This document shows positions 10,367-53,966 of a DNA stretch of 55,375 nt, in pieces (position 1 is the first letter of the stretch; every line of letters starts with the position of its first letter). The position numbers and the translations under genes are program-made. The stretch spans positions 1 through 55,375 of the forward strand of contig CALCZR010000051.1 in NCBI GenBank assembly GCA_937903325.1. Direction: 5' to 3'. This DNA comes from an uncultured Candidatus Saccharibacteria bacterium. GTDB lineage: Bacteria > Patescibacteriota > Saccharimonadia > Saccharimonadales > AWTP1-31. Below the pieces are notes generated by a model. The model ran no database searches. It saw only the letters and a list, made by a program, of their open reading frames with translations, and was not told the DNA's origin.

Positions 10367-10372
10367 TAAATT

Positions 10373-10622: not shown

Positions 10623-10663
10623 GATTCTCCTTAATCTATGTTACCGAATTTGGCAACCTAAAT

Positions 10664-10692
10664 ATTATACCACAGCTATTGAGGATTTTACA
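10664..10692 (-). promoter_or_regulatory. extended -10 promoter, TGgTATAAT
   Basis: On the minus strand: TGTAAA, a 17-nt spacer and TGgTATAAT (-10 at 10669..10664). It is back-to-back with the plus-strand promoter. Confidence 0.5.
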
Positions 10693-10707
10693 GGGATATG
10701 GTACAAT
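10679..10707 (+). promoter_or_regulatory. sigma70-type promoter, TTGAGG-17 nt-TACAAT
   Basis: TTGAGG at 10679-10684 and TACAAT at 10702-10707. The ATG at 10713 lies 5 nt downstream with no SD. Confidence 0.5.
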
Positions 10708-10712
10708 TAATT

Positions 10713-39795: not shown

Positions 39796-41225
39796 CCTCT
39801 CGGTTTTTTGAGTATTACTTGTTGATATCTTGGCTTGGCATCATAAAATGCATAAACAACAGCGTCACCTTTATCTGGAGATCTGTTTAGGGATGCACTT
39901 ATTTCATCTTTGGCTTGCACCTGTATTCCATTTGGAGTAAGTCTCCATGTTGGTGTGCACAGATCTTCAAGCATTTGCTCGTCTGGTGGCAAAGCAAGGT
40001 CAGACCCAGTGGATGGATCAAGCTTTTCCCTTAATTCCCAGTATAGTTGGGCTCTAAGATTGCGAAACTTAAACTGCCTGGTCTTATCCATTGATGACGA
40101 GCGTGCTGCACCGTTTACGGGATATACATAGTCTCGTCTGTCTTTGAGGTGGTCATAAACAGACGATCCAATACCAATCACGTCTACATTTATAGCTGTG
40201 GATGACTCGGTAGATTGCATCACCAATGCAGCAACTGCTGCGCCATCTGGAGTCGTTTTACCAGGATAAGATTTAATCTCTCCAACGTAATTTCCCCACC
40301 TTGGAGCTAGGACAGTCTTATCCTTACCTCCCCGTGCAGGGTCGACCCCGATAGCGTCAGGAGTTCCATCAGGTTGAGCAACCGCTTTCCAGCGATCCAT
40401 TGCTTTTGTAACCCATTCTCTAGGTATTACTCTCCAGACGGATTCTTCAATATCGCTAAACTCACCCATGATTTCCTGTGAGATAGCTTCTTGTGGATAG
40501 TTGTCAATCGTCCTCTGGATCTCTTCGGGTGACATCCATGGATTATCGTAGGTTGTATATCTCTTGCCGTAATAGCCAGCTTCTCCATCTAAGCACTTCT
40601 GCCACAGTTTGTAAAAGAGGTTCCTCCCCTTTGGAGTTCCTGCTGCGATCAACTGTGAGTTTGGAAAGTCCATAAGCATTGGCAATACAGCGTTATAGTA
40701 GAGATATTCGTCTTCTAGCACCAAGCCTGCTTCGTTAATAAAGATAACTTGATACGCAAAGCCTTCCCAGTTCTCAGGGTTCTGAGCGGACCGGAAGTCT
40801 ATATATCCACCATTCTCGCCTATTTTTAATACTTTCTTCTGTGCGCTCCATCTGTATTGGATGTTACGCTTACGCATTGCTGGGATAAACATCCGCTCAA
40901 CGTATCTATCCAAGTTGGACTGTGTTACGTCTCCCCACATAAGTGGATATCCCCATAGTGCAAACTCTATAAATGCGTGTGCCGCACCTCTAGTTGCACC
41001 AAGACGACGTCCCTTGGGATGGATCCTAAATCTACCCTTTTTAGCGCCATCAAAAAATATATCTCTCTGAGCTGGGGAATACTCAAAAGGATCGTACTTT
41101 GGGGGTACGATCTTGCCATTGATAGAATCTTTTGACTCAGTTGAAGAAATTAGGGATGCCAGCATCGTCTGCGTCTGACGATCCAGTCCTATCATTGTTT
41201 GCCAATTGTTTGGTAATTTCTTCAA
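39783..41225 (-). CDS. terL: terminase large subunit
   Basis: Walker A-like motif is HPKGRRLGATRGAAH and Walker B-like motif is VIFINEAG. A C-terminal nuclease-like region with conserved Asp residues follows. Confidence 0.85.
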   Translation of the reverse strand: MKKLPNNWQTMIGLDRQTQTMLASLISSTESKDSINGKIVPPKYDPFEYSPAQRDIFFDGAKKGRFRIHPKGRRLGATRGAAHAFIEFALWGYPLMWGDVTQSNLDRYVERMFIPAMRKRNIQYRWSAQKKVLKIGENGGYIDFRSAQNPENWEGFAYQVIFINEAGLVLEDEYLYYNAVLPMLMDFPNSQLIAAGTPKGRNLFYKLWQKCLDGEAGYYGKRYTTYDNPWMSPEEIQRTIDNYPQEAISQEIMGEFSDIEESVWRVIPREWVTKAMDRWKAVAQPDGTPDAIGVDPARGGKDKTVLAPRWGNYVGEIKSYPGKTTPDGAAVAALVMQSTESSTAINVDVIGIGSSVYDHLKDRRDYVYPVNGAARSSSMDKTRQFKFRNLRAQLYWELREKLDPSTGSDLALPPDEQMLEDLCTPTWRLTPNGIQVQAKDEISASLNRSPDKGDAVVYAFYDAKPRYQQVILKKPRGWYG

Positions 41226-41550
41226 AAGCGGTCTCCCTAGTGATTATCTTGTCCATTACCTCGATAAACCTATTGATCTTATTCATATCAAACTCTGTAT
41301 TTAGTAAATACAGGTTTCGGTGTATCGCCCGAGTCCGAGCATCCATTGGCGTAGCCTCAGTTCTGGGTTGTCCCCTGTTAAGCTCGGCTACAATCTCTTC
41401 GTCAGTAAATTCTTCTTTAATCTTCCATCTTACAATTGTTTTTGCATTTACATTCATTTCTCGAGCGGTCTTTTCCACATTTCCGCTGTGTTTCCGGAGC
41501 AACACCATTGCTTTCAGTCGTGCTTCCCTCGAGTATTCTATCTCTGCCAT
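41137..41550 (-). CDS. terS: terminase small subunit (HTH)
   Basis: The HTH segment is GNVEKTAREMNVNAKTIVRWK. It is directly upstream of, and overlapping, terL, with GAGGAG upstream. Confidence 0.6.
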   Translation of the reverse strand: MAEIEYSREARLKAMVLLRKHSGNVEKTAREMNVNAKTIVRWKIKEEFTDEEIVAELNRGQPRTEATPMDARTRAIHRNLYLLNTEFDMNKINRFIEVMDKIITRETAFEEITKQLANNDRTGSSDADDAGIPNFFN

Positions 41551-42660: not shown

Positions 42661-42745
42661 TGTCTAGGACGCAATAATGCTCTAGGTTAGTACATAAAGA
42701 GTATAAAACACAGTAAAATAATTAATACTTATATAGTACTTATTA
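42661..42745 (-). repeat. conserved intergenic element, copy A (minus orientation)
   Basis: The reverse complement reads AGTACTATATAAGTATTAATTATTTTACTGTGTTTTATACTCTTTATGTACTAACCTAGAGCATT... It is near-identical to copies B, C and D. Confidence 0.8.
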
Positions 42746-42844
42746 TTGGTAGCGCTGAGTATCTTGAGCAGAATGTGTAAGGTATCTAGCTATAGTCATT
42801 GGCGGTAGACGTGAGAACCAAATGAGGCACCTGGGTATTGTACA

Positions 42845-42910
42845 TATATAGTACTTAATTAGTATTAGATATTTGTTCTGTGTTTTATATTCTTTATGTA
42901 CTAACCTAGG
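42845..42910 (+). repeat. conserved intergenic element, copy B
   Basis: The sequence is ATATAGTACTTAATTAGTATTAGATATTTGTTCTGTGTTTTATATTCTTTATGTACTAACCTAGG. It forms an inverted pair with copy A. Confidence 0.8.
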
Positions 42911-42953
42911 GAAGAAATGCATGCCAGACGCGTATCATCAAACATGCATTAAT

Positions 42954-42982
42954 TTGACTTTTATTCATCCATTTGGTATAAT
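42954..42982 (+). promoter_or_regulatory. sigma70-type promoter, TTGACT-17 nt-TATAAT
   Basis: TTGACT at 42954-42959 and TATAAT at 42977-42982. The ATG at 42989 lies 6 nt downstream with no SD. Confidence 0.65.
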
Positions 42983-42988
42983 AAACAT

Positions 42989-43309
42989 ATGTTTAGGCAT
43001 AAGTTCAAAAACAAAATAACAGAATATAAAGGGGTGAAGTACAGATCTAAACTCGAAGCTGATTATGCAAAGCACTTGTTTAAACTTAAGGATGAAGGCA
43101 CTCTCCTATGGTTTAACAGGCAAGTGATATTTGATTTTCCAGATGGAAACAGCTATAGGGTAGACTTCCTTGCATTCTATGCAAATGGCGATATGGATGT
43201 CGTCGACACCAAGGGCGTAGAGACCCCAGACTTTAAGCGCAACATTAAGAGTATGGAGTACTACTATCCATATTTTAATGTTAAGATTGTAAAGAGAGGT
43301 GATTTCTGA
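42989..43309 (+). CDS. DUF1064-like PD-(D/E)XK nuclease
   Basis: The pattern is YKGVKYRSKLEADYAKHL ... YRVDFLAFYANGDMDVVDTKG, giving a D...(D/E)xK arrangement. Confidence 0.55.
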   Translation: MFRHKFKNKITEYKGVKYRSKLEADYAKHLFKLKDEGTLLWFNRQVIFDFPDGNSYRVDFLAFYANGDMDVVDTKGVETPDFKRNIKSMEYYYPYFNVKIVKRGDF

Positions 43310-43310
43310 A

Positions 43311-43709
43311 ATGGCTAAATGTCGCATCCCAAAGAGGTATGGTTTTTTCATACATGCTGATATCCCAATATATGTCGTTGTTAAGCGTAATAAATATGTC
43401 CATGCCTTACATTGGTACGATCTTGATGGCACATGGGTCAGCGACGAAACAGACCTAAGTGATATTTATATATCCGCCGATGACATAACCATACAGCTCT
43501 CATACCTTGAGTGGATACAGCACCTTAAGGTATCTGGTATCACAAACTACCCAAGGTACCTGGTTAGCTACACAGTTAAGCAAGTTGCAAGGCTTAACGA
43601 GATATTTGCTGGCGATAAGATGCGATTTGAGGATATTGAGCTCTTCAAATTCAATGAAATTAAATCTGTGTCTGAACTCGATGGGTTAATCTACAAAGGG
43701 GTGCAATAA
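43311..43709 (+). CDS. hypothetical protein (132 aa)
   Basis: AGAGGTG lies 9 nt upstream of the ATG at 43311. The track start is 43299. Confidence 0.55.
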   Translation: MAKCRIPKRYGFFIHADIPIYVVVKRNKYVHALHWYDLDGTWVSDETDLSDIYISADDITIQLSYLEWIQHLKVSGITNYPRYLVSYTVKQVARLNEIFAGDKMRFEDIELFKFNEIKSVSELDGLIYKGVQ

Positions 43710-44035
43710 TGAGTACGAAACGTAAAAGCTCTAAACCGCCAAGGAAACCTCAGGAAGATAGCAAAAAGAGCCCAAGTAGAAAGAAAGGGCCGCGCATTAG
43801 ATTCACAGAGCGCTACTTTATGTACTTCTCTACGGCCCATGAGACCGGAATTGTTGATCTTTCAAACTGGGAAGGATCTGCAGTTTATAGCACAGATAAG
43901 AAGGATTTCGATCTCGGTAACGAATGGATCTACAATATGAGAGATGGAGACGGAGATTGTTTCTACGTATACAACCGAAAACTTACAGAAGAGATGTGTG
44001 ATCTTATATTCGATCAGCGTCCTAGATGGTTTTAG
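43709..44035 (+). CDS. hypothetical protein with highly basic N-terminus (108 aa)
   Basis: TAATG-coupled. The N-terminus is KRKSSKPPRKPQEDSKKSPSRKKGPR. Confidence 0.55.
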   Translation: MSTKRKSSKPPRKPQEDSKKSPSRKKGPRIRFTERYFMYFSTAHETGIVDLSNWEGSAVYSTDKKDFDLGNEWIYNMRDGDGDCFYVYNRKLTEEMCDLIFDQRPRWF

Positions 44036-44064
44036 TTGACTTTTGTAAGCTTAGGATATATAAT
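44036..44064 (+). promoter_or_regulatory. sigma70-type promoter, TTGACT-17 nt-TATAAT
   Basis: TTGACT at 44036-44041 and TATAAT at 44059-44064. The ATG at 44070 lies 5 nt downstream with no SD. Confidence 0.65.
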
Positions 44065-44069
44065 AAATT

Positions 44070-45137
44070 ATGATACCTGACAGTGACTTTTACAATCAAA
44101 ACGGAGACCTCTTAAGCTGTAGATCTCTCGGTAAAAAACTCGGCATCTCTAAGAGCGCAGCCAGCCTCTTAATCCGGAAATTCAAAGCGCGGCATAGTAC
44201 ATTTGATGATGAATATAGCCTGCCTGGCAAAGTAGAGGAATCGGAATCAGTAGAGGCTGCCGACGAAACAGAACTACTAATTAGTAATCCAGTGAACGCT
44301 AAGCGGTTATTCCAATCAATTGACGAACTTAGGCCAAAAGAGCCTAAGAAGCAATTTGAAGTAAAGATGCCCAAGCGTGCACATAGGAATATTATCATTC
44401 TAAACGACATTCACTTTCCATACCATGATGAAGCCATCCTAGAGAGTGTGATGCATTACATCTACGATTCCCAAGTAGACATGGTTGTGCTCAATGGAGA
44501 CACGTTAGATTGTGAAGCACTAAGTACATTTCAGGATGCGGACCGAGCACCATTTGGTGAAGAGCTTGACTTGGCACGCAGCTTTATTAAGCAACTCACA
44601 AAGATCGCAAGGCACAATAATGCTGGTTGTGAATTCGTCTGGATTGACGGAAACCATGAAGCTAGGTTAGAAAAGTACCTAGTTAGGCAAGCGCCAGAGC
44701 TTCTTGGTCTTTCTGTGGAAGGAAACAAAGTTTTATCCATACGTAACCTGATGGGACTAGATGAGCTCGGATGGCAATACTTATCTTACTCGGAGTTTCT
44801 TGCCCTTCCAGGAGATCTCTATATCCAGCACGGTCACAAGGTCTCAAAGCACAGTAGTAGTAGTGTAGGTAATTCTATGAGAGATCAAGGCGGATCTGTA
44901 ATTATAGGGCACGTCCATAGACTTGGTGCATTTTACGTAACCAACAGACTTGGTACCTTTAGGGGATTTGAAAATGGATGCCTATGTAAGCAGCCTAAAT
45001 ACCTTCCAAAGGATTCTGCTAACTGGCAGAGAGGATTCTGTAAGGTTACTTACACTGACGAAACAACTTGGCATGTTCAACAGGCCTTTATTCAAGATGG
45101 CAAATTCATGATGGATGGTAAGCTATATGGAGCTTAA
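44070..45137 (+). CDS. calcineurin-like metallophosphoesterase with N-terminal HTH-like extension
   Basis: Motifs are NDIHFPYHD (DxH), NGDTLD (GDxxD), DGNHE (GNHE), QHGH and GHVH. The N-terminal segment is LGKKLGISKSAASLLIRKF. Confidence 0.8.
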   Translation: MIPDSDFYNQNGDLLSCRSLGKKLGISKSAASLLIRKFKARHSTFDDEYSLPGKVEESESVEAADETELLISNPVNAKRLFQSIDELRPKEPKKQFEVKMPKRAHRNIIILNDIHFPYHDEAILESVMHYIYDSQVDMVVLNGDTLDCEALSTFQDADRAPFGEELDLARSFIKQLTKIARHNNAGCEFVWIDGNHEARLEKYLVRQAPELLGLSVEGNKVLSIRNLMGLDELGWQYLSYSEFLALPGDLYIQHGHKVSKHSSSSVGNSMRDQGGSVIIGHVHRLGAFYVTNRLGTFRGFENGCLCKQPKYLPKDSANWQRGFCKVTYTDETTWHVQQAFIQDGKFMMDGKLYGA

Positions 45138-45169
45138 TCCTGACTAAACTGCTCGGAATTAACCAGTTA

Positions 45170-45199
45170 CCCTCCCAATAATACGGGAGGGATTTAAAT
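45170..45199 (+). terminator. rho-independent terminator
   Basis: Stem CCCTCCC / GGGAGGG with an 8-nt loop, followed by ATTTAAATT. Confidence 0.6.
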
Positions 45200-45227
45200 T
45201 GCGGTTATTCTATTTCTGTGATATAAT
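45199..45227 (+). promoter_or_regulatory. sigma70-type promoter, TTGCGG-17 nt-TGaTATAAT
   Basis: TTGCGG at 45199-45204 and a TG-extended TATAAT at 45222-45227. A leader of about 65 nt with an SD follows. Confidence 0.55.
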
Positions 45228-45299
45228 ATTTTTAACCAAGACGCTAGGCGGAAGTCGGTTTGTCTACCTGACAATAGATTAGCGATTGGTTAAGAAAGG

Positions 45300-45578
45300 A
45301 TGAAGATGCACAGCAACGTAAAAATCCTATTGTTCAAACTACAAAACTGCGACCCATGCACACAATTAGCAGATTTTATAAACACAGGAGAGATGGAGGC
45401 GTTAAGGCCTAGTATAGATCAGTACCTGGCAAGTGACGATATATCTCCTTTCAAAAAGTATAGGGTATCTGGGGCTCCTCAAGTTGTAATATTACAAAAT
45501 GGACTGGAACTGCAGAGGGCAAAAGGCTTTGATGACTGTGTCGGCCTACTTAGGCGCGTACTTGAGGATGATTACTGA
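45300..45578 (+). CDS. thioredoxin/glutaredoxin-like redox protein
   Basis: The CxxC motif sits in thioredoxin context (KILLFKLQNCDPCTQL). The cis-Pro-like segment is VSGAPQVVIL. Confidence 0.65.
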   Translation: MKMHSNVKILLFKLQNCDPCTQLADFINTGEMEALRPSIDQYLASDDISPFKKYRVSGAPQVVILQNGLELQRAKGFDDCVGLLRRVLEDDY

Positions 45579-46195
45579 TGGGCACATACGATGCCTATGT
45601 GCAAATAATTGAAAACGAAAACATCAAAACTAAACATATCGAAGGTGGCTCGATGAATTTCATTGATTTTGAATTCATCGCTAGGAAGGCTCATGAGATA
45701 TCTAGGTTAGGGTACAGGGTAAATACTTTAGATTATTCCAGTAAGGACTCTGCATTCATCTACATTAATCTGTACGTCGATGCAAACATAACTGGGAGAC
45801 TCATCGTTGAATACACAGAAGAAGATGATTTCTCTAAAAAGAGGAAGATATCTCAACCCAGAATGTGGCTCGTAGGTCTATCTCAGGACGCACTGGATCT
45901 CATTGAGGAGCATATTAAGGTACTTGGTACCAATGACCTACATATCGTGCATAGGGCAGTGACAAAGTACCTACAGGGTACTACCTATGCGGCTAAAGTA
46001 GATAATAAACTACTGGCAATGTTCCCAGAGGAGATCGCTGATTTCTTCCTGTGGAAAGATGTCTACTGTAGAGAGCTCTCAAAGAAAGAAGCCAGGGAAA
46101 TAACCAAGTATTTAATAAGTAAAGATAAGACAGAAGTCAATAAGCCACTTATAAAGAAATTCCTTACAGCTGTGTTCCTAAACTTCTCCATGTGA
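45578..46195 (+). CDS. hypothetical protein (205 aa)
   Basis: Open frame, TGATG-coupled. Confidence 0.6.
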   Translation: MGTYDAYVQIIENENIKTKHIEGGSMNFIDFEFIARKAHEISRLGYRVNTLDYSSKDSAFIYINLYVDANITGRLIVEYTEEDDFSKKRKISQPRMWLVGLSQDALDLIEEHIKVLGTNDLHIVHRAVTKYLQGTTYAAKVDNKLLAMFPEEIADFFLWKDVYCRELSKKEAREITKYLISKDKTEVNKPLIKKFLTAVFLNFSM

Positions 46196-46426
46196 CTTCT
46201 TAACCCTACTGTTCCTCCTTTGACTCAAATGATACGCAGGCCAAATAGCCAAGAGATCAGCCCCAAGCTCTTCGGCTATTTTCCTTGCCACATGATTAGG
46301 AGGTAGGTTTCTACCAATACAATACTCAACAAGAGTCTTCCTAGGTACACCAAGATACCTGGCAAAAGTCGTTTGGTTAAATCCTGCATCTACTATGTAT
46401 TTATTAAGATTATTTTTATGCCTCAT
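46178..46426 (-). CDS. Cro/CI-type HTH regulator (82 aa), probably leaderless
   Basis: The HTH segment is FNQTTFARYLGVPRKTLVEYCIGRN. The ATG at 46426 lies 6 nt after an extended -10 box. The track N-terminal extension to 46486 is unlikely. Confidence 0.65.
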   Translation of the reverse strand: MRHKNNLNKYIVDAGFNQTTFARYLGVPRKTLVEYCIGRNLPPNHVARKIAEELGADLLAIWPAYHLSQRRNSRVKKSHGEV

Positions 46427-46432
46427 AGATAG

Positions 46433-46461
46433 ATTATAACACAGTAAGACTGGGGTGCCCA
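46433..46461 (-). promoter_or_regulatory. extended -10 promoter, TGGGCA-17 nt-TGtTATAAT
   Basis: On the minus strand the -35-like box is at 46461..46456 and the -10 box at 46438..46433. Confidence 0.55.
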
Positions 46462-46970
46462 GTGTGGTGATACATAGAACATACACTCATAGGACTCTCA
46501 TAAACATATAGAGTATTCTTATTAGATATTTTTAGGCTACATAATTTGTGCCTGTTGATGCCTCTTAAATTATACATGTTGGATATATAATAAATACTTT
46601 GTTGACTGTACTCATATCGTATCCGTTGGAAGTATTTGTAGAATATCTGTTGGTTGTACTTATTATGTATTTGTTGGCTGTACAATATGGTACTTATTGA
46701 GTACTTGTTATAAGTATTAATTCTGTTTAACAATATTCTCATAATCAAGTAAAGTAATGGGTTTACCTGCGACTACGGTAAGAAATAGGTCTCATGAAAT
46801 ACTCATGATAGTCCTAATAAATCTATTTTGCCTATCGAGACGGTAAAGTTCCACCCCTCCAAATCCAAACATCGGTTTTTTCCTACCCCACCTCTAATCC
46901 CTCAGAAGGATTTATAGGCACCTTAATGAGGCTTACAATCGCCTATAATTTAGAGCACTCATAATGAGGT

Positions 46971-47134
46971 CCTTGTTGATAGTACTCATTATGTATTTGT
47001 TGAGTATTAGTTGGTAGGTACTGTCGATGCACTAGTTGAGAGCCTTGTTGATAGTACTCATTATGCGCTTAATATGTACATGTTGGTAGGTACTGTCGAT
47101 GCACTAGTTGAGAGCCTTGTTGATAGTACTCATT
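46971..47134 (+). repeat. 72-bp-period tandem repeat, about 2.3 units
   Basis: Identical 52-bp blocks lie at 47011-47062 and 47083-47134 (TTGGTAGGTACTGTCGATGCACTAGTTGAGAGCCTTGTTGATAGTACTCATT). They are separated by different 20-bp segments. A partial copy lies at 46971-46990. Confidence 0.85.
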
Positions 47135-47245
47135 GGTGTTACTCTGTCGGTAACAGTTTACTATGTATAATTATACTAGGTACATGATGGCATGGGTGGA
47201 ATTGGTTGGTAGTGACTGTTGGTGAGAGGTGATCGAAGTTTCACC

Positions 47246-47277
47246 TGATTTATTAGTTGGATGATTTATTAGTTGGA
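47246..47277 (+). repeat. perfect 16-bp direct tandem repeat, x2
   Basis: TGATTTATTAGTTGGA occurs twice back to back. The hairpin AGGTGA/TCACCT (47227-47246) precedes it. Confidence 0.85.
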
Positions 47278-47460
47278 ACTCACACAACATTATATCCTCT
47301 ATAACCGCTCTAACCCCAATCACTAAAACCATCTCTGGCACTCATAACAAGTACTTAATATGTACCAGAAGGTACTGTACCTTGGTACTCATAATAGAGA
47401 GTCTCGTTGGTAAGTACTCTATAGATGCATATTAAGTACCTCCAGATGCCTCCCATAACA

Positions 47461-47575
47461 CTTAAAAGGCTCCCATTAAGGGAGCCCATCTATCTACTTT
47501 ACTTTTCAATCCACTTTTCTTACTTTGGCATTTGCTTTCATACCTAATAGTACCATATCCTCCCCTCCCAGTCAA
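47461..47575 (-). ncRNA. autonomous about 80-nt transcription unit: promoter, 11-codon leaderless ORF, intrinsic terminator
   Basis: On the minus strand, TTGACT (47575..47570), a 17-nt spacer and TACTAT (47552..47547). After 5 nt comes the ATG at 47541 (MKANAKVRKVD, stop at 47506). The hairpin GGCTCCC/GGGAGCC (47486..47468) plus TTTTAAG closes the unit. Confidence 0.4.
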
Positions 47576-47660
47576 CCAATCGAGCAGCGTTTTAAAACTA
47601 CAATCCTTCGTTAAGACTTTCCTAAGACTTTATTAAGGTACCATTAAGGTACATAAAGTA

Positions 47661-47699
47661 ACCCCAAGGTTTGGGCGTACAAGCAGAGGCCTTTGGGGT
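47661..47699 (-). terminator. hairpin downstream of the 47782..48192 gene
   Basis: CCCCAAAGG / CCTTGGGG imperfect stem with a large loop, followed on the minus strand by TTACTTTAT. Confidence 0.35.
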
Positions 47700-47781
47700 C
47701 TTATCGAGATACATTATGCCATAGTTGGAGTAGTCATTACGTTTACCATCTGTTTACTCTTTAATTACTGTGCTCTAAAAT

Positions 47782-48192
47782 TTACCAAACATACAGACCC
47801 TTATCTGTTGCGTACTCGATTGGCAACTGTTTGTCATACGTTCTGCGGAGCAGCTTGATATCAGACTGTAACATGATATATCCATCCTTGGTCCAGATAT
47901 CACCAACAGCGTTGGTGGCTACAAAGATCATGCCTGCGTTGATCTGGTAGGCGGTGCAGAGGCTGCCTCCATGGCCAACTGCAAATAACTTGGTTGCTGG
48001 TGCAATACCGTGCTCAAGAGACAGCTGGAGTATCCTGCGGCAGCTGATGTCAACGCTGCCATTGTGATCATCCCATCGCCGAGCAGTCACCAGGCCATAC
48101 ACATCATGCTCGACTGCCTTCCAAACTCTAAGCTCTTGCACGGATTCGGCGCCAAGGAATTTTACCAATTGATCTACTTTTACATTCGTCAT
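47782..48192 (-). CDS. hypothetical protein (136 aa)
   Basis: AAGGAG lies upstream of the ATG at 48192 (MTNVKVDQ). The track start is 48234. Confidence 0.6.
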   Translation of the reverse strand: MTNVKVDQLVKFLGAESVQELRVWKAVEHDVYGLVTARRWDDHNGSVDISCRRILQLSLEHGIAPATKLFAVGHGGSLCTAYQINAGMIFVATNAVGDIWTKDGYIMLQSDIKLLRRTYDKQLPIEYATDKGLYVW

Positions 48193-48308
48193 GTTTACCA
48201 CTCCTTTGTAGTGTTCCCGCATCTCTGGGCTCATCCCTTTGATGTATTAATCATATCATGTATGTCTGGGTTACGCAATAGTCTGCTCCCGATCTCTACT
48301 TAGTAAAA

Positions 48309-48336
48309 CTATTAGCATCTTACTCTTAATACTCAA
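48309..48336 (-). promoter_or_regulatory. candidate promoter, TTGAGT-16 nt-TGcTAATAG
   Basis: On the minus strand the -35 box is at 48336..48331 and the TG-extended -10 box at 48314..48309. Confidence 0.4.
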
Positions 48337-48349
48337 CAATCCATATAAT

Positions 48350-48431
48350 ATATATACTATATAAGTACTTAACTAGTACTGTGCTTTATATCTTTTATGT
48401 ACTAACCTAGAGCATTTCGCTGGCTAGGACG
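48350..48431 (+). repeat. conserved intergenic element, copy C
   Basis: The sequence is ...TATATAAGTACTTAACTAGTACTGTGCTTTATATCTTTTATGTACTAACCTAGAGCATTTCGCTGGCTAGGACG. Confidence 0.8.
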
Positions 48432-48464
48432 TACAATAGAAATACCCAACCTTTTACAGTTGGG
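48431..48464 (-). terminator. rho-independent terminator of the dnaE operon
   Basis: Stem CCCAAC / GTTGGG (48445-48464), followed on the minus strand by TATTTCTATT. Confidence 0.55.
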
Positions 48465-48519
48465 CTTGTGAATTAATTACCTTGCTTACTACAATAATTA
48501 TTGAGTTTAGGTGTTACCA

Positions 48520-48756
48520 TTACTCTCCCAAATTGAGTCGTTGCCCTTCGGCAATCAACTCCTCTATGCCTTTAATCCTTACTGCTCGGTCAATCCTCTG
48601 TTGCTCGATTGCCACATCTGCTTCTGCCGCATCTGCTATACCTAGCTCCTCTAGCCCTAGCATAATGCTTACTTCTTCGATACTGTAAACCCGCTCCTCC
48701 CCAGAGCGGATTCTACGTAATATCTCCTGTATGTGGTTTAAAAATTCTTCTTCCAC
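48520..48756 (-). CDS. hypothetical acidic helical protein (78 aa), GTG start
   Basis: Open frame with AGGAAG upstream of the GTG. The antisense 68-aa plus-strand ORF is Ser/Ile-rich and judged a shadow. Confidence 0.55.
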   Translation of the reverse strand: MEEEFLNHIQEILRRIRSGEERVYSIEEVSIMLGLEELGIADAAEADVAIEQQRIDRAVRIKGIEELIAEGQRLNLGE

Positions 48757-48880
48757 TGCTTCCTACTTTCGGAGACCTTTGCAACCAATCGGTTGCCCAT
48801 CATCGCCCCGGATAAGATCGCCAGGGGCAAACACATCTCATGTGTTAATACTAGTACTTAACTGCTCCCAAGTCAATAGC

Positions 48881-51800
48881 CTATCTGCCGCCTACGAACT
48901 GGAGTAATAACTTAGGCTCGTAAGTATAAACAACGTCTACACCACCTATCTTATCAAGTGCATCTCCGATCAATTTTGACACTCTTAGGTCTCCTAAATC
49001 CATGGTTACAATATCGTACCCAGTATCAATCCTAACAATACCCCTAGCGCCGTCTGTAGTGCCTCTAAAATCCTCAGTAAAGGTCTGTAGGATGTTTGTA
49101 TCCACCTCTAACATATCAAGGGTAATAACGGCGATCCTGGGAAGCAAAACTAAATCATCATAAGTCAGTATCCGCTTACCAACTAGTTTTGGACTGCCAT
49201 TGTCATCGTCTGGCGTTATATCACAGTAAAAGAGGGCCGAATTGTCTATGGTTGCGCCAACAGACATTTGCTGCCAATCATCGGCAAAGACGATCATCTC
49301 AACGACTGCAGTCTCATCCTCGATCATGAGCTTAGCCATGATTTGCCCTCTCTTGGTTTGGATCTTGGTGATACTAGATATAGTGCCAGCTATGATCCCT
49401 CTTACTCTATTTTGGTAATAAGCTGGCTGAGTACTGCACCAATCATTAATCCCAGCTATAGTAGATGATCTGGCGGCCTTAAACTCTGGGTAGCTATCGA
49501 GTGGATTGCCTGATACATAGAGTCCAATTGCGTCTCTCTCCAGCTTAAGTAGCTCAACAGGAGTATATGGAGTATAATCATCAACCAGCTGTCTTGGCTT
49601 AGGATTGCGCTTTGGCAGAGGTTTGCGCAAGATATCTATACTTGCCAACTGTTGGGATCTGTCACCCAGACTATCTAATGCTCCGGCTTTGATTAACATT
49701 CCAAGAGCCCTAGAGTTGAGATCACCCTTGCTTATCCTCTGTGTTATATCAATCAGATCATCAAATTGTCTCTCCTGTCTCGCCTCAAGGATTACATCTA
49801 TCGCCCCAACCCCAAGAGATTTAATTGCTGAGAGTCCAAAATAGATTACTCCATCTGTTATTGCAAACTCTCTATGTGATTTGTTGATGTCTGGTGGCAA
49901 CACTTTAATACCATATCTACGTGCATCTTGGATATACTCTGCTACCTTATCTTGATCTCCATATTCTACAGATAATAAGGCTGCATAAAATACATCTGGA
50001 TGATTAACTTTAAGCCATGCTGTTTGATAGCTAAGCACCGAATAAGCAACTGCGTGACTACGGTTAAATCCGTAATTTGCAAACTTATTCAGCAATTCAA
50101 ATAATCTTTCAGCCTCTTCTGGGTCTACGCCATTCGCAGTCTTTGCTCCATCGATAAACTTTGTCCGTTGTTTATCCATCTCGGATTGTGATTTTTTTCC
50201 CATTGCCCTTCTCAGCAAATCGGACTCAGCTAAAGTGTATCCAGCAACAGAAGTAGAGATATGCATAATTTGCTCTTGGTATACAGGAATGCCGTAAGTC
50301 TCGGATAAGATGCTTGACAGTAGATGGCCAGATTGCGGGAAATCCTTATAAGATATCTCCTCAAGCCCATGTCTACGCTTAATATACGTACCAATGTTAT
50401 CCATTGGGCCTGGTCTATATAAACTTGTAAGTGCTACTATATCTTCGAATCGCTCTGGTTTAAGACTCTTAGATGCCTGAGAGATACCAGATCCTTCTAG
50501 TTGGAATATTCCTTTATTATCACCTCTAGATAGTAGCTTGTATACTTTAGGGTCATCTAATGGTACATCATTAAACACTACAGATATACCCTTATGTTGC
50601 AACAAGAGATCTCTAGCCTTTTCTAAGAATGTTAAAGTTCTTAAACCCAGGAAGTCCATCTTTACAAGTCCAATATCCTCAACATCATGCATATCATATT
50701 GACTAACTGATTTACCTGTAGATCTATCTACTGTTAGTGGTATCAGGTCTGTAAGAGGAGTATCGCTAATGATTAGCCCAGATGCGTGGACTCCACTGCT
50801 ACGTATTGTTCCCTCCAGGTTGAACGCATAATAATAAGCTCTCTTTACATCTTCATGCACGTCTAGGAAATCCCTAATCTCTTGCGATGAATTGTATGCC
50901 TCCATTAGTGTGGATGGCTTACCGAATTTTACAGGGATCATGCCGGTTAGGATGTTAATAATGTCATGAGGTAAACCCATTGATCTTGCTACATCTTTTA
51001 AACAGGATCTAGATAGCATGGCTCCATAAGTACCAATCATGCATACATGATCTTCGCCATATTTTTCCCTTACGTATGCAATCACCTTTTCTCTACCAGT
51101 GTCACTTATGTCAATGTCGTAATCCGCCATGGAAACTCTGTCTGGGTTGAGAAATCTCTCAAAGATTAATCCGTACTTAATTGGGTCGACGTCAGTTATA
51201 CCAATAGCATAGCCTATTAGAGACCCCGCGCCTGATCCACGACCAAGGCCAACTGCTATCCCTTGCTTCTTAGCCCAGTTGACGTAATCTTGTACGATGA
51301 GGAAGTAATCAGTAAAGCCCATCTTCTTAATCACAGTTAATTCATACTCTGCTCTCCTAATCTTATCAGGAGTAAGATCTGCACCGTATCTCTTGCGTAG
51401 CCCCTTATTGACAAGTCTGTATATCTTTGCATCAGAGGTGTCGCCCTCTTGTAACTTTGGCTGGGGGATCCTGTAGGTCCTCTTGCTACCAATTGGCAAC
51501 TCTACATTGCAAGACTCTGCAATTAATACTGTGTTATCATAGATTTCGTCTCCCCAAGTTGATCTAGGTAGGAATAGCTCCATTTCTCCTACTGACTTTG
51601 TATAAAACTCATCGCATGGGAATTTAAATCTATTCTCGTCAGACAATCTTGCTTTGGTTTGTATGGCCAAGAGAGTGTCATGCGTATCACTATCTGTCTT
51701 TTTAATGTAATGCCCATCATTGGTAGCAACCATGCCAATCCCATACTCTTTGGCTAACTCCATCAACACAGGATTAACAAGTTGTTGCTCTTGTAGGCCG

Positions 51801-52342
51801 TGATTTTGGATCTCAATAAAGTAGTTGCCTTTAAAGACTCTAAGGTACCACTCGATGGTAGATCTAGCAGATTGCATGTCTCCATTAAGGATATATTGCT
51901 GCAACTCTGCGCCAAGGCAGCCAGACATTGCTATTACACCCTTACTGTGTTGTTCTAAGATCTCATGGTCAATCCTGGGTTTGTAGTAATAGCCTTCTGA
52001 GTTGGCGAGATAGTTAAGGCGGCACAGGTTCTGGTAGCCCTCAAAGTCTTTAGCTAGCAAAGTTAAGTGATATGTCTTCTCACCCTTTTGCTTGGTATGC
52101 CTACTTCCAGCAGTTATGTATGCCTCATAACCTAAGATTGGTTTGACTCCGAATTGGATTGCATACTTGTAAAACTGTAAGACTCCCGACATATTGCCGT
52201 GGTCAGTCATTGCACATGATGGGTCTGTATCTGTAGTGTCTTTTACCCATTGCAGTAGATCTTTAATATTGCTTAGTCCATCAAGTAGGCTATAAGACGT
52301 ATGCTGATGTAAGTGGGAAAACTTAGTCATTTGGTGCTCCAT
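48881..52342 (-). CDS. dnaE: DNA polymerase III alpha subunit (DnaE-type, N-terminal PHP domain)
   Basis: The PHP motif is FSHLHQHTSYSLLDG. The palm motif is GLGRGSGAGSLIGYAIGIT, with DIDISD and FNRSHAVAYS also present. Length is 1153 aa. Confidence 0.95.
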   Translation of the reverse strand: MEHQMTKFSHLHQHTSYSLLDGLSNIKDLLQWVKDTTDTDPSCAMTDHGNMSGVLQFYKYAIQFGVKPILGYEAYITAGSRHTKQKGEKTYHLTLLAKDFEGYQNLCRLNYLANSEGYYYKPRIDHEILEQHSKGVIAMSGCLGAELQQYILNGDMQSARSTIEWYLRVFKGNYFIEIQNHGLQEQQLVNPVLMELAKEYGIGMVATNDGHYIKKTDSDTHDTLLAIQTKARLSDENRFKFPCDEFYTKSVGEMELFLPRSTWGDEIYDNTVLIAESCNVELPIGSKRTYRIPQPKLQEGDTSDAKIYRLVNKGLRKRYGADLTPDKIRRAEYELTVIKKMGFTDYFLIVQDYVNWAKKQGIAVGLGRGSGAGSLIGYAIGITDVDPIKYGLIFERFLNPDRVSMADYDIDISDTGREKVIAYVREKYGEDHVCMIGTYGAMLSRSCLKDVARSMGLPHDIINILTGMIPVKFGKPSTLMEAYNSSQEIRDFLDVHEDVKRAYYYAFNLEGTIRSSGVHASGLIISDTPLTDLIPLTVDRSTGKSVSQYDMHDVEDIGLVKMDFLGLRTLTFLEKARDLLLQHKGISVVFNDVPLDDPKVYKLLSRGDNKGIFQLEGSGISQASKSLKPERFEDIVALTSLYRPGPMDNIGTYIKRRHGLEEISYKDFPQSGHLLSSILSETYGIPVYQEQIMHISTSVAGYTLAESDLLRRAMGKKSQSEMDKQRTKFIDGAKTANGVDPEEAERLFELLNKFANYGFNRSHAVAYSVLSYQTAWLKVNHPDVFYAALLSVEYGDQDKVAEYIQDARRYGIKVLPPDINKSHREFAITDGVIYFGLSAIKSLGVGAIDVILEARQERQFDDLIDITQRISKGDLNSRALGMLIKAGALDSLGDRSQQLASIDILRKPLPKRNPKPRQLVDDYTPYTPVELLKLERDAIGLYVSGNPLDSYPEFKAARSSTIAGINDWCSTQPAYYQNRVRGIIAGTISSITKIQTKRGQIMAKLMIEDETAVVEMIVFADDWQQMSVGATIDNSALFYCDITPDDDNGSPKLVGKRILTYDDLVLLPRIAVITLDMLEVDTNILQTFTEDFRGTTDGARGIVRIDTGYDIVTMDLGDLRVSKLIGDALDKIGGVDVVYTYEPKLLLQFVGGR

Positions 52343-52985
52343 CTGGGAAGTTTAGGTATGCAAACTCTCCATGGTATTTCTTAGCCGCGTCATCATACGC
52401 AAGAGCTGCCTCTATTGCGGTTGGGTATGAGCCTATGCAAATCCTGGTCCCATTTGCGCAGATACGTGATTGATACGTCGTACATCCACTATTTGCTGTT
52501 ACGCCTTTGTATCCAAGCTTGTTGCGCTTGTGGGGCCCAGAGTTGGCTCGATTTTGATATCTGTTTGCGCTACGCAGATTACTCTTCCTGTTATCTAATT
52601 TATTTCTATTGACATGGTCAACCATTCCTGCATGCAGCAGGAATCGGTGTAGCGATATCTTCCTTGTCTCAGGCGCAATTGAAACATACCCAGATGACAT
52701 GTAAAACTTATAGTCGATGTATTTCTCAAAGTCATCAATGTCAATTATGAACCATAGATCATTTTTGCCATAAACTTTAACCTCAATTGCGCCTGTATAG
52801 TCGGACGATCTAATTATATTACTATATGGTTTTCTAGGCGTACTTCTCAACCCGCTATTTTCATACTTGCGAGATAGTGCTCTATTGCAAGCTCTACATC
52901 CGTAGGTATACCCATCTTTTGAATGCTTATCCTTATGGAAAGAATCCAGTGGCTTCTCAATACCACACTTTGTACACTTCTTCAT
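52323..52985 (-). CDS. HNH homing endonuclease with AP2 DNA-binding domain
   Basis: The N-terminal zinc finger is CTKCGIEKP...CRACN. The HNH_3-like motif is VDHVNRNKLDNRKSNLR. The AP2-like domain is YKGVT...YQSRICANGTRICIGSYPTAIEAALAYDDAAKKYHGEFAYLNF. Confidence 0.85.
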   Translation of the reverse strand: MKKCTKCGIEKPLDSFHKDKHSKDGYTYGCRACNRALSRKYENSGLRSTPRKPYSNIIRSSDYTGAIEVKVYGKNDLWFIIDIDDFEKYIDYKFYMSSGYVSIAPETRKISLHRFLLHAGMVDHVNRNKLDNRKSNLRSANRYQNRANSGPHKRNKLGYKGVTANSGCTTYQSRICANGTRICIGSYPTAIEAALAYDDAAKKYHGEFAYLNFPDGAPND

Positions 52986-53371
52986 GACTCACCCATTTTT
53001 AATTTCAACCAACTTGTTAACCCATGATCTGTAGCTGGATGCAGAGCTTGCTTGGCAAACGACCTAATGTTGCAATACATTTGCATAAATCGTTCGTCGG
53101 GAAAGAGAGACCAGTATTTCTGGACTAGGTCTAACATCTCATCATTTGGCGCAATTCTAGATGCTGGCCAATGTAGTATTCTCGCATAGCTTAGGTTCTC
53201 TTCTTTTAGCCACAGTGTAAGTGCGTCATCCTCCATATAGTAGGAATCGTAATCTACAGACTCGGCAATCTTGTTGACGATAAAGTCAAATGGTCTATCT
53301 ACGTGGCCATACTGGTACCAGTATTGCTCAATCTGTTCCATGACTTCGTATATTCTGCCAATAGGCCTCAT
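52982..53371 (-). CDS. hypothetical protein (129 aa)
   Basis: Open frame, ATGA-coupled. Confidence 0.6.
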   Translation of the reverse strand: MRPIGRIYEVMEQIEQYWYQYGHVDRPFDFIVNKIAESVDYDSYYMEDDALTLWLKEENLSYARILHWPASRIAPNDEMLDLVQKYWSLFPDERFMQMYCNIRSFAKQALHPATDHGLTSWLKLKMGES

Positions 53372-53511
53372 ATGCCTTCCTCCCTCTCTAGGCGTTCCTT
53401 CTCTAGTATAGCCATTATTCTGGCGATATCAACCCTATAACCTGCCTCGCTTAGCGATTCCCTTATACTTTCTGCCATGCGTCGTTGACCACGCTTCTGC
53501 TTTTCGTTCAT
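53368..53511 (-). CDS. small basic/acidic helical protein (47 aa), not in ORF track
   Basis: AAGGAGATAAA lies upstream of the ATG at 53511. ATGA overlaps occur at both ends. The product is MNEKQKRGQRRMAESIRESLSEAGYRVDIARIMAILEKERLEREEGI. Confidence 0.55.
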   Translation of the reverse strand: MNEKQKRGQRRMAESIRESLSEAGYRVDIARIMAILEKERLEREEGI

Positions 53512-53759
53512 TTTATCTCCTTGATTTTCAGGTGAAACTGAGACACCAACATCCTGAGGTCAAGGCTATGGATGGTGTAGACACGGTCGTAGATCACAGT
53601 TACAGAGTATGGGTCAGCCTGGTCGGTGTGGGCGCTAATAAGGTATCTGTATGCCGATGGAGTAATGTTGATATCCTTGATTTCGTATTTCATGGCCCTG
53701 CCTCCTAAGTTGACTTTTACGCTGCGTTTGTGAGCCGGACTGGTAAGGTTTACTCGCAT
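53508..53759 (-). CDS. hypothetical protein (83 aa, or 61 aa from ATG 53693)
   Basis: The ATG at 53759 lies 6 nt after a TTGACA-17-TACCAT promoter, a leaderless architecture. The internal ATG at 53693 has AGGAGG upstream. Confidence 0.55.
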   Translation of the reverse strand: MRVNLTSPAHKRSVKVNLGGRAMKYEIKDINITPSAYRYLISAHTDQADPYSVTVIYDRVYTIHSLDLRMLVSQFHLKIKEIK

Positions 53760-53865: not shown

Positions 53866-53938
53866 TATATATACTTATTATTTTACTGTGTTTTATATCT
53901 TTTATGTACTAACCTAGAGCATTTCGACGTCTAGGACG
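53866..53938 (+). repeat. conserved intergenic element, copy D
   Basis: The sequence is TATAGTACTATATATATACTTATTATTTTACTGTGTTTTATATCTTTTATGTACTAACCTAGAGCATTTCGACGTCTAGGACG. Confidence 0.8.
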
Positions 53939-53966
53939 CAGTTTAGAATTATCGATCAGATATTGC

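Follow-up and report, generated by a model that had tools for sequence, protein, structure and literature searches.

The window, by which we mean the whole stretch of DNA analysed (55,375 nucleotides), derives from an uncultivated wastewater phage and lacks at least 4.2 kb of the phage genome. When ORFs of at least 60 aa were masked and gaps of at least 250 nt were sought, two gaps were found in the 55 kb, at positions 42668-42988 (321 nt) and 46749-47781. Once a 104-aa ORF on the minus strand (46434-46748) is dropped, the second one extends over 46427-47781 (1355 nt). No other ORF-free gap in the window comes near it in size, and it is referred to here as the region. Seven related contigs have an ORF-free gap of 1.17-1.4 kb at the same place and beside the same small HTH gene (1187 nt in L140 and 1169 nt in L142, which span it in full). 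In them, the HTH protein is 70-100% identical and a 205-aa neighbour protein 59-100% identical.

The 104-aa ORF, which the sequence-only reading had already taken for an artefact, was rejected as a gene, since it has no Pfam or PHROG match, an insertion of 11 nt splits its frame in L124, a ~95% strain, and no open frame of at least 45 codons exists in L125 and L126. A 26-codon ORF on the minus strand (46793-46872), lying over a C-rich block, is without an ATG in L125 and breaks off in L142 once 8 codons have been read; it is probably not coding. Except for a micro-gene of 11-18 codons, predicted to be leaderless, no ORF in the gap was conserved among the relatives or matched a protein family in Pfam or PHROG. 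This bears out the earlier view that no credible ORF lies between the Cro/CI-like gene and that at 47782..48192. The relatives likewise encode no proteins across this interval, with the sole exception of a mobile, homing HNH endonuclease inserted in L126. In addition, the tRNA scan found no tRNA, the Rfam 15 covariance-model scan gave no match in the region (outside it, only a chance tmRNA fragment, E=0.79), and a DNA similarity search with the region and 19 kb around it gave no match among GenBank phages and plasmids.

Flanking genes and transcription signals

The genes and transcription signals at the edges of the region are the following.

46178..46426, minus strand: HTH gene of the XRE/Cro-CI type (HTH_3), 82 aa; Pfam HTH_3 E=4.8e-6, PHROG repressor families
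46433..46461, minus strand: HTH gene promoter, TGGGCA-17-TGtTATAAT; promoter scan 10/12, with TG extension
47463..47487, minus strand: intrinsic terminator, GGCTCCC-TTAAT-GGGAGCC then TTTT; RNA fold -22 kcal/mol, z=-2.9
47506..47541, minus strand: micro-ORF MKANAKVRKVD*, 11 aa, predicted leaderless
47547..47575, minus strand: micro-ORF promoter, TTGACT-17-TGgTACTAT; promoter scan
47611..47698, no strand assigned: short tandem repeats TAAGACTTTCC (x2.5) and ATTAAGGTACC (x1.9), then a hairpin
47782..48192, minus strand: gene of a 136-aa protein, Shine-Dalgarno sequence upstream; not a constant neighbour of the region

In all relatives the region has the HTH gene on its left, and the 82-aa form of this gene is correct because L119 carries an in-frame stop upstream of the ATG. 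As this ATG (46426) lies only 7 nt past the -10 box, the HTH gene mRNA is predicted to be leaderless. Within the promoter, CTGTGTTATAATC is invariant or nearly so in five aligned relatives, and the counterpart in L142 is TGATATAAT-N6-ATG. The promoter has no AGTACT box, the AGTACT-N5-AGTACT sites being at least 230 nt away.

At the right of the region, the terminator hairpin is kept with different letters in the strain represented by L139 and L140 (CTCCC-TTTAA-GGGAG followed by TTTTT). The micro-ORF has 18 aa in these two contigs, where the KVRKVD unit is duplicated with synonymous differences only between the copies (CGG/AGA, GTC/GTA, GAC/GAT), and its promoter conserves both hexamers with a diverged spacer. 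The segment 47611..47698 is nearly identical in L140; its hairpin (CCCCAAGG..CCTTTGGGG, 47662-47698) probably provides the 136-aa gene with its 3' end signal, and a direct repeat previously noticed near 47632 corresponds to its ATTAAGGTACC repeat (x1.9, 47632-47652). Sigma-70-like sites are not enriched in the region (11 vs. 9.1 expected). Three things had escaped the sequence-only reading: the HTH promoter with its predicted leaderless start, the micro-gene, conserved together with a promoter and a terminator, and the probable collapse of the 72-bp array described below.

The region sits between two converging DNA-metabolism operons, one containing DUF1064, a metallophosphoesterase and a thioredoxin-like protein, and the other DnaE. 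The gene of this polymerase lies 1.1 kb to the right of the region, which corrects the earlier account; its leftward operon ends at the region's right edge, and the gap holds its terminators. The 136-aa neighbour was rejected as a box-binding protein: in another phage group, which lacks the boxes, its homologues lie beside the terminase genes, upstream of them. The 205-aa neighbour protein is linked to the region in the relatives. It had no sequence match in Pfam, PHROG or PDB, its AlphaFold model (pLDDT 59.5) gave no significant fold match, and it belongs to only two 50% clusters among 1.84 billion proteins, with no prophage or plasmid relatives found. Finally, the terminase genes are 5 kb from the region: the large terminase at 39783-41225 and, upstream, an ORF at 41137-41550 that we read as a putative small terminase from its position and HTH-like N-terminus.

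Box arrays, palindromes and conserved blocks

The words GTACT, ACTCAT and GTTGR are 5-30x enriched in the region, almost all of them in the same orientation. GTACT occurs 13 times (9.6/kb vs. 1.3/kb elsewhere), so that both the earlier count of at least a dozen GTACT/AGTAC boxes and their supposed enrichment over the rest of the window hold. AGTACT occurs six times (4.4/kb vs. 0.39/kb elsewhere). ACTCAT is present nine times on the plus strand and never on the minus strand (0.31 expected, Poisson p ~6e-11), GTTGG 12 times and never, respectively, and the region holds five of the window's six plus-strand copies of GTACTCAT. The composite box GTTGRNNGTAC has nine exact matches in the window where 0.59 were expected; six of them are in the region, all on the plus strand. 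A degenerate pattern of this box gave only single chance matches in IMG/VR. The TTGTTG-type boxes listed earlier are real, but some had been placed about 10 nt off (46647 instead of 46637) and that near 47385 lacks the TTGTTG half.

The arrays, the blocks between them and the palindromes are located as follows.

46484..46546, plus strand: block ACTCAT..TCTCATAAAyA..GATATTTTTAGrsTAyCATAAT; alignment of five relatives, also in L142
46554..46716, plus strand: box cluster 1, six direct GTTGR(-NN-GTAC) boxes
46826..46900, plus strand: C-rich block with a T6 run (..ACGGTAAAG..CCAAATCCAAACATCGGTTTTTTCCTACCCC); all seven relatives
46905..46965, plus strand: block GGCACCTyTATGAGGCTTACAATCGCCTATAATTT; alignment of the relatives
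46971..47277, plus strand: box cluster 2, with a 72-bp tandem repeat, further GTTGR boxes and a 16-bp x2 repeat
47340..47440, no strand assigned: palindrome cluster; repeat and palindrome searches
42676-42740 (minus strand), 42873-42942, 48374-48444 and 53881-53951: conserved intergenic elements with AGTACT-N5-AGTAyT

The boxes of cluster 1 start at 46554, 46578, 46601, 46625, 46649 and 46673, thus spaced by 24, 23, 24, 24 and 24 bp, and the cluster terminates in the near-palindrome GGTACTTATTGAGTACT (46689-46705). A spacing of 23-25 bp is also found in L124, L125, L119 and L140. Cluster 2 contains 12 GTTGR boxes, all on the plus strand, and the two tandem repeats previously described were recovered in it, the 72-bp one at 46971-47134 (x2.3 as assembled) and the 16-bp one at 47246-47277 (x2). 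In three sequencing runs, whose depths are per-contig means, the unitigs of the 72-bp repeat had a k-mer depth 2-8x that of the flanks, and the array is therefore probably collapsed in the assembly and longer than assembled. A CRISPR-like array was rejected for this repeat (variable part of only 16 nt, no cas gene), as was the template repeat of a DGR (differences not adenine-specific, variable part of 16 nt, no RT gene). A direct terminal repeat, as raised depth might indicate, was rejected too, the excess being confined to repeat k-mers.

Over the seven relatives, GTTGR was counted 78 times on the plus strand versus four on the minus strand. The box type GTTGR-NN-GTAC is kept in them while single boxes and the intervening sequence turn over, drift or get replaced. 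In L142, the most distant one, the box type is largely replaced; the recognition region of the HTH protein and the palindrome ending cluster 1 are both conserved even there. The distant DnaE phage MT835501 has no comparable gap.

With respect to the conserved blocks, that at 46484..46546 has a promoter-like -10 and no conserved -35. The C-rich block is the best conserved non-box element, and assembly graphs show alternative paths at it, with loose ends at 46849 and 46897, which probably represent a duplication. The block at 46905..46965 contains a promoter-like TTTATA-17-TACAAT directed rightward into cluster 2; a 24-mer probe from it matched L119 exactly and found nothing in the JGI metagenomes. 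The duplex-stability minimum of the whole 55 kb at the 200-bp scale falls at 46565-46765, overlapping cluster 1, with the caveat that over 60-100 bp promoter regions reach a similar instability and that no 13-mer-like DUE repeats were defined. Long AT-only tandem tracts occupy the equivalent place in L125 and L142.

The palindrome cluster includes AGTACTTAATATGTACC (47350-47366), a 12-bp inverted repeat (GTACTTAATATG at 47351-47362 and CATATTAAGTAC at 47428-47439) and AAGGTACTGTACCTT (47369-47383), the 15-bp palindrome earlier placed near 47367. A 36-bp inverted repeat has its left arm at 46680-46715 and its right arm at 47340-47375, and its arm TAACAAGTACT is kept in L140, L124 and L119. Three AGTACT-N5-AGTACT palindromes are present in the gap and enclose the central 620 bp in inverted orientation. 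This site type, with 10 matches vs. 3.25 expected, recurs in the five promoter-associated elements that the phage conserves; as to the four intergenic elements said earlier to share an AGTACT box, these are real and carry AGTACT-N5-AGTAyT. Additionally, the leaderless micro-gene and the near-invariant 60-nt promoter-associated element are further candidate regulatory parts of the same phage.

A possible iteron-type origin

Our preferred reading, held tentatively and at somewhat less than an even chance, is that the interval is an iteron-type replication origin embedded in a zone of transcription convergence and control. A phage-encoded DNA-binding protein would bind cooperatively to the two direct GTTGR-NN-GTAC(T) arrays, and the resulting nucleoprotein complex would melt the adjoining A+T-rich DNA, the least stable 200 bp of the window. 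A helicase would be loaded next, and the phage DnaE, encoded directly to the right, would start synthesis. Through the AGTACT-N5-AGTACT palindromes, an HTH regulator would probably link the activity of the origin, or transcription nearby, to the programme of early genes. We infer protein binding, melting and initiation at the region from its sequence features.

This reading is plausible because the arrays are direct, equally phased and evolutionarily maintained, because the easiest-to-melt 200 bp of the window are in the region, because of its position between two DNA-metabolism operons, and because AT-rich tandem tracts are found at the same place in L125 and L142. Against it, no initiator, helicase, helicase loader or primase was recognised by Pfam or PHROG among the ORFs of the window, in agreement with the earlier statement and within a window that lacks the part of the genome indicated above. 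The neighbouring 205-aa product is an orphan, its structure model being of low confidence and matching no known fold, and the region has no DnaA or IHF sites (no TTATCCACA match at up to one mismatch, no IHF consensus). Moreover, a period of 24 bp does not correspond to a whole number of helical turns, L142 retains little of the box type, the distant DnaE phage has no comparable gap, and the polarity of the motifs is equally compatible with a function at the RNA level.

A repeat-array origin is a familiar kind of element, and one of these, with some control signals, is the likeliest candidate here. Clusters 1 and 2 both consist of at least three direct repeats of one box type, in the same orientation and at regular spacing, as iterons do. 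In lambda, iterons are spaced by about 24 bp. Plasmid origins have iterons of 17-22 bp, up to 76 bp, arrayed beside a DUE, and the arrays described here resemble RK2 oriV, P1 oriR, F oriS, R6K and lambda ori in their direct repeats, single orientation and spacing of about two helical turns, as well as in what may be adjoining, easily melted A+T-rich DNA and in having extra arrays, possibly for copy control (PMC4980987). Unlike those iteron-type theta origins, the locus has no recognisable Rep/O-type initiator gene near the repeats and no DnaA boxes. Its own boxes number at least 20 and fall into two clusters separated by 270 bp, of which one is a tandem array of the 72-bp unit.

In PLE, a Vibrio cholerae phage satellite, the origin has been mapped experimentally to 2.7 kb of non-coding DNA containing several repeat families, which serve as iterons for the initiator (PMC7145576). 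The kilobase-scale non-coding repeat region is common to both; PLE, in contrast, has a RepA_N initiator, experimental proof and semi-palindromic iterons around a poly-A tract, whereas the boxes here are asymmetric and come without a recognised initiator. Lactococcal and streptococcal siphophages (sk1, c2 and the Sfi21 'Per' elements) have intergenic, repeat-rich and A+T-rich origins between gene modules, that of c2 being transcribed into a non-coding RNA. These origins differ from the region in being a few hundred bp long with a handful of repeats, and they have no sequence similarity to it.

Competing readings and significance of the locus

A possible but rather doubtful alternative is a transcription control and termination zone, in which the two operons converge and end and phage regulators, namely the adjacent HTH protein and the binder of the five conserved promoter-associated elements, use the boxes as operators or decoys. 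Expression of the HTH gene and the micro-gene would be set at these sites, perhaps through a loop that joins the inverted AGTACT palindromes. The conserved leaderless HTH promoter at the left edge, the conserved right-hand unit that joins the micro-ORF to a promoter and a terminator, the terminator-like hairpins (47463-47487 and 47662-47698) and the enclosure of the centre by the 36-bp inverted repeat would all fit such a zone. So would the excess of AGTACT-N5-AGTACT, common to all conserved intergenic elements, and the conservation, even in L142, of the HTH recognition region and of the palindrome ending cluster 1. But there is no divergent protein gene to regulate, the HTH promoter lacks the AGTACT box, and sigma-70-like sites scarcely exceed expectation. 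Nor are the abundant boxes palindromic; they are direct, asymmetric repeats in a fixed phase, and more than 1 kb with more than 20 sites is far above the needs of known switches. The master operator cluster proposed earlier is the weaker reading for three of these reasons (no divergent gene, no AGTACT box in the HTH promoter, asymmetric direct repeats), even if a repressor-type HTH_3 gene does adjoin; palindromic operators over divergent promoters of two regulator genes, which define a Cro/CI-type switch, are not found. Among known regulatory sites, the stoperators of cluster A mycobacteriophages (L5 gp71) are numerous asymmetric 13-14 bp sites of a small HTH repressor in one orientation relative to transcription. 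They are scattered genome-wide in short intergenic gaps, in contrast to the GTTGR-NN-GTAC boxes, which are confined to one locus.

It is unlikely, albeit in keeping with the strict strand polarity of three motif classes in all relatives, that the region is a non-coding RNA locus. One or more rightward transcripts, starting for instance at the promoter-like blocks 46522-46546 or 46911-46947, would carry GUUGR..GUAC motifs acting in RNA (as protein sponge, primer or R-loop RNA), and the C-rich, G-poor tracts past each array would be Rho-entry sites. The region is indeed ORF-free, conserved -10-like elements are directed into each array, and each G+T-rich array is followed by such a tract. Nevertheless, there is neither an Rfam match nor a conserved -35, and L140 and L124 both lack the sole terminator-like hairpin of the plus strand (47227-47246). 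A single hairpin qualifies as a conserved candidate but is weak: it folds at -2.3 kcal/mol, and compensatory changes affect two of the eight base pairs, each time in one sequence only. In the two runs labelled RNA, contig depth is flat for genes and gap alike.

We consider improbable another type of protein-DNA scaffold, whether a centromere-like partition site, a packaging-recognition site or physical genome ends, whose direct-repeat arrays would recruit a ParR/ParB-like protein or the small terminase. F sopC (12 x 43 bp) and R1 parC consist of tandem units each with a protein-binding box, with two repeat blocks around a central segment. The large direct-repeat arrays, whose 72-bp tandem unit probably occurs 4-8 times, are similar to such centromeres, and unitig depths peak in the region. 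Unlike sopC and parC, no partition ATPase or adaptor gene was found in the window, where Pfam and PHROG recognised no ParA-type or other partition family and no parA/parB-type gene among the ORFs, and there is no sign of a plasmid lifestyle. Partition centromeres adjoin an operon of a ParA-type NTPase and its adaptor, which is lacking beside the region, and pac or cos sites lie beside or within the small-terminase gene, the candidate for which is 5 kb away (terminase genes at 39783-41550). As for genome ends, the depth excess occurs only in repeat k-mers, the flanking 1310-nt contig being at ~1.1-1.3x after shared k-mers are allowed for, and the assembly graph continues through the region. Searches for relatives among prophages and plasmids gave none.

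Fast-evolving repeat DNA without a function is improbable as well. The region would then be a recombination or insertion hot spot between operons and its motifs by-products of local duplication, which is compatible with the many indels and whole-segment replacements between close strains, the HNH endonuclease of L126 and the apparently variable copy number of the tandem repeat. However, box type, orientation and spacing persist where the intervening sequence has diverged by about 30%, several blocks are invariant across all relatives, and phage genomes this dense rarely tolerate 1.2-1.4 kb of useless DNA in the same conserved position. Most improbable is that the arrays act as a decoy or sponge, 20 to more than 40 same-sense sites in DNA or in an untranslated rightward RNA titrating a host or phage nucleic-acid-binding protein, for example one that senses infection for a defence system, one of the nucleoid, or an early regulator of the phage itself; the dose would be tuned by the number of 72-bp units, varying from strain to strain, and the KVRKVD-repeat peptide gene could be part of the same device.

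In its mode of evolution, the locus preserves the kind of box, its sense and its phase and exchanges copies, spacers and entire segments. It is also a warning that short-read assemblies under-represent such arrays. If the arrays are a replication origin, as we tentatively prefer, they would be the cis-element of a rare, uncultivated clade of DnaE-encoding siphophages without a recognisable initiator. The GTTGR-NN-GTAC box would then be a handle for the search of the initiator by DNA-affinity methods, with the 205-aa orphan, always linked to the region, as the first candidate.

Genomic setting of the ORF-free region

The window is one portion of the genome of a siphovirus-like phage found in wastewater metagenomes, and 94-96% of the words of the ORF-free region were present in three 2017 runs. 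A DNA similarity search against GenBank phages and PLSDB revealed nothing resembling the window DNA, and the nearest DnaE and terminase proteins were just 35-42% identical. The genome is incomplete in the window, as a contig of sequencing run X3 extends 4208 nt beyond position 55375.

Gene organization of the window (coordinates, strand, content)
70-10710, +: nucleotide-metabolism genes (ligase, ribonucleotide reductase, dCTP deaminase, thymidylate synthase)
10879-41550, -: structural genes, including a 3130-aa tape measure, major head protein and large terminase
42989-46195, +: operon of DUF1064, metallophosphoesterase, thioredoxin-like protein and an orphan 205-aa protein
46178-46426, -: 82-aa HTH_3 gene
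46427-47781, no strand: ORF-free interval
47782-53759, -: operon of a 136-aa orphan, DnaE-type polymerase III alpha (48881-52342) and HNH endonuclease

The tape-measure ORF (22977-32369) is very long, and the PHROG match of the 1483-aa ribonucleotide reductase ORF (1867-6318) spans residues 720-1483 only, a pattern pointing to a fusion or an intein. The 205-aa protein (45578-46195) belongs to a tiny orphan family, with two 50%-identity clusters among 1.84 billion proteins, and is always linked to the region; an identical copy is recorded on a 65.4-kb contig. No domain or fold match was found for it, and its predicted model had a pLDDT of 59.5. Homologues of the 136-aa orphan (47782-48192), 46-75% identical, occur in a different group of ~43-kb phages (loci L128-L138) encoding a primase-polymerase and a DEAD helicase, where the gene is the first of the late operon, directly upstream of the terminase genes. 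This mosaic gene shifts between genome contexts.

When ORFs of at least 60 aa were masked and gaps of at least 250 nt counted, two gaps only were obtained, a 321-nt divergent promoter region and 46749-47781. The 104-aa ORF that delimits the latter (46434-46748) had no family match, an insertion of 11 nt splits its frame in a strain ~95% identical to the window and it is not open in two further relatives. It was therefore discounted, as the sequence-only reading had proposed, giving a gap of 1355 nt. Seven homologous regions, only a handful, were recovered through the neighbouring proteins.

Relatives carrying the homologous region (contig, source, similarity)
L124, Logan: ~95% strain
L140, JGI: 82% over the gap; full span, 1187 nt
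L119, IMG/VR: 72-83%
L125, Logan: HTH protein 70%
L126, JGI: HTH protein 74%
L142, ENA: 205-aa protein 59%; full span, 1169 nt
L139, Logan: right part only

The ORF-free gap beside the HTH gene was retained in all relatives, in agreement with the expectation that they encode no proteins across it; in L126 a homing-type HNH endonuclease (3-530, like window 52323-52985) is inserted in the non-coding region. Relatives carry further mobile or accessory insertions: in L139 a HicB-like antitoxin gene (211-504) upstream of a 129-aa gene, and in L140 (6581-8653) an intein (Pfam Intein_splicing) within the DnaE homologue.

Repeat arrays and palindromes

Elements of the region and related intergenic elements (coordinates, strand, content)
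46433-46461, -: HTH promoter TGGGCA-17-TGtTATAAT, its -10 ending 6 nt before the ATG (46426)
right of the HTH promoter: conserved block TCTCATAAAyA..GATATTTTTAGrsTAyCATAAT
46554, 46578, 46601, 46625, 46649, 46673 (starts): six GTTGR boxes of cluster 1
46826-46900, right of cluster 1: C-rich block with a T6 run (..CATCGGTTTTTTCCTACCCC), found in 7/7 relatives
between C-rich block and cluster 2: second conserved block GGCACCTyTATGAGGCTTACAATCGCCTATAATTT
46971-47277: cluster 2, a 72-bp repeat, further GTTGR boxes and a 16-bp doublet
47340-47440: palindrome cluster
47575-47547, -: micro-gene promoter TTGACT-17-TGgTACTAT
47541-47506, -: micro-ORF MKANAKVRKVD*, 11 codons
47487-47463, -: micro-gene intrinsic terminator GGCTCCC-TTAAT-GGGAGCC-TTTT
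47662-47698: hairpin behind the 136-aa gene, with short tandem repeats
42676-42740 (-), 42873-42942, 48374-48444, 53881-53951: conserved intergenic elements (~60-70 nt); a fifth adjoins window position 1, at the end of the X3 extension

The tandem repeats, palindrome and hairpins previously noted by eye were all found in the region, and the proposed enrichment in GTACT boxes held on counting: 13 occur there (9.6/kb vs 1.3/kb elsewhere), together with six AGTACT. The region is a genuine feature, both conserved and polar. GTTGG and ACTCAT are found on the + strand only (12:0 and 9:0, the latter with 0.31 expected), and the composite GTTGRNNGTAC has nine exact matches in the window vs 0.59 expected, six of them in the region and all six on +. 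In most cluster 1 boxes GTTGR is followed by two bases and GTAC(T), and the cluster terminates in the near-palindrome GGTACTTATTGAGTACT.

The DNA between conserved blocks is heavily rearranged among relatives. The close strain carries 6 nt in place of an 80-nt stretch and has a 280-nt stretch wholly replaced. In L125 and L142 the place of cluster 2 is taken by tandem tracts of pure A+T. Nevertheless, GTTGR is found 78 times on + vs 4 on - across the seven relatives, with the consensus unit GTAyyTGTTGRwwGTACT, and cluster 1 boxes are spaced 23-25 bp apart in L124, L125, L119 and L140 as well. Copies thus turn over while the type, sense and phase of the motif persist, a signature expected of protein-binding-site arrays. 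The boxes are restricted to this locus and clade, and absent from the other loci with a 136-aa homologue. Being asymmetric, locus-specific direct repeats, they look like iterons.

The AGTACT palindromes should be kept apart from these boxes as a separate site class. AGTACT-N5-AGTACT near-palindromes (10 matches vs 3.25 expected) lie at all four conserved intergenic elements of the window, where a shared AGTACT box had been recognized, and at 46689, 46981 and 47350. These elements comprise an AGTACT-N5-AGTAyT pair plus CTGTGTTTTATATCTTTTATGTACTAACCTAGAG, and are almost unchanged even in L142, the relatives' proteins being just 59-70% identical. Sigma-70-like promoters follow them in the window (e.g., TTGACT-17-TATAAT at 42955); the element at 48374 is oriented against the surrounding - strand genes. 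An HTH dimer may use these palindromes, which are good candidates, as its operator; L142 conserves the recognition region of the HTH protein as well as the palindrome ending cluster 1. Since 47340-47375 repeats 46680-46715 in inverted orientation (36 nt, 83%), the central 620 bp are bracketed by AGTACTTGTTA / TAACAAGTACT, a bracket retained in L140, L124 and L119.

The contigs of runs X1-X3 break within 46850-47134, where k-mer depth at 46971-47134 was 2-8x that of the flanks.

Depth of the two unitigs holding the copy-specific parts of the 72-bp unit, each occurring once in the window (46971-47039; 47043-47111; flanks)
X1: 68; 82; 22-28
X2: 89; 141; 22-36
X3: 500; 592; 239-278

The shared unitig of the array reached depths of 136-192. 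Given the raised depth of both unitig types, the array is probably collapsed in the assembly, with 4-8 units in real genomes and a copy number varying between samples. The C-rich block, with alternative graph paths at 46849-46897 in the three runs, is perhaps collapsed also, and the gap likely measures 1.5-1.8 kb in reality.

Transcription units at the edges

Because its -10 ends 6 nt before the ATG, the HTH mRNA is predicted to be leaderless. The -10 region is unchanged or almost so in five aligned relatives, L142 reads TGATATAAT-N6-ATG, and the TGtTATAAT-N6-ATG arrangement is conserved in all. Gene callers picked a 102-aa form starting at GTG 46486; the in-frame stop upstream in L119 fixes the 82-aa form.

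At the right edge, 47463-47575 is likely a tiny gene within the otherwise ORF-free region, although an ORF of 11 codons would ordinarily be passed over. Its promoter hexamers and terminator are conserved in L139 and L140 with different spacer and stem letters, its ATG lies 5-6 nt past the -10, like that of the HTH gene, and the KVRKVD unit is duplicated in both relatives (18 aa), the copies differing at four nucleotides, all synonymous. These traits suggest that the micro-ORF is translated as a leaderless basic peptide.

Possible function as a replication origin

An iteron-type phage origin with attached control elements is the function that we tentatively favor, as it fits the arrays, the absence of genes and a location where two DNA-metabolism operons converge. 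Also counted toward an origin were the A+T tracts of two relatives and the 200 bp at 46565-46765, the least stable in the window. Iteron origins have been reviewed (PMC4980987), and experimental mapping in the satellite PLE placed an origin in a repeat-bearing non-coding region of kb scale (PMC7145576). Caution is advised by the orphan nature of the 205-aa protein, by the lack of DnaA and IHF sites in the region and by the fact that, as first observed, no initiator, helicase or primase is visible in the window. A purely regulatory zone seems unlikely; sigma-70-like sites are not enriched (11 vs 9.1 expected). A non-coding RNA locus is quite improbable, its sole conserved RNA hairpin candidate being weak, and slightly less probable still are neutral repeat DNA and some other protein-DNA scaffold (a centromere or packaging site, for instance). 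Besides its possible role as an iteron-type origin, the region certainly has transcriptional roles, as it holds the promoter of the HTH gene, the micro-gene unit and the 3' ends of operons.
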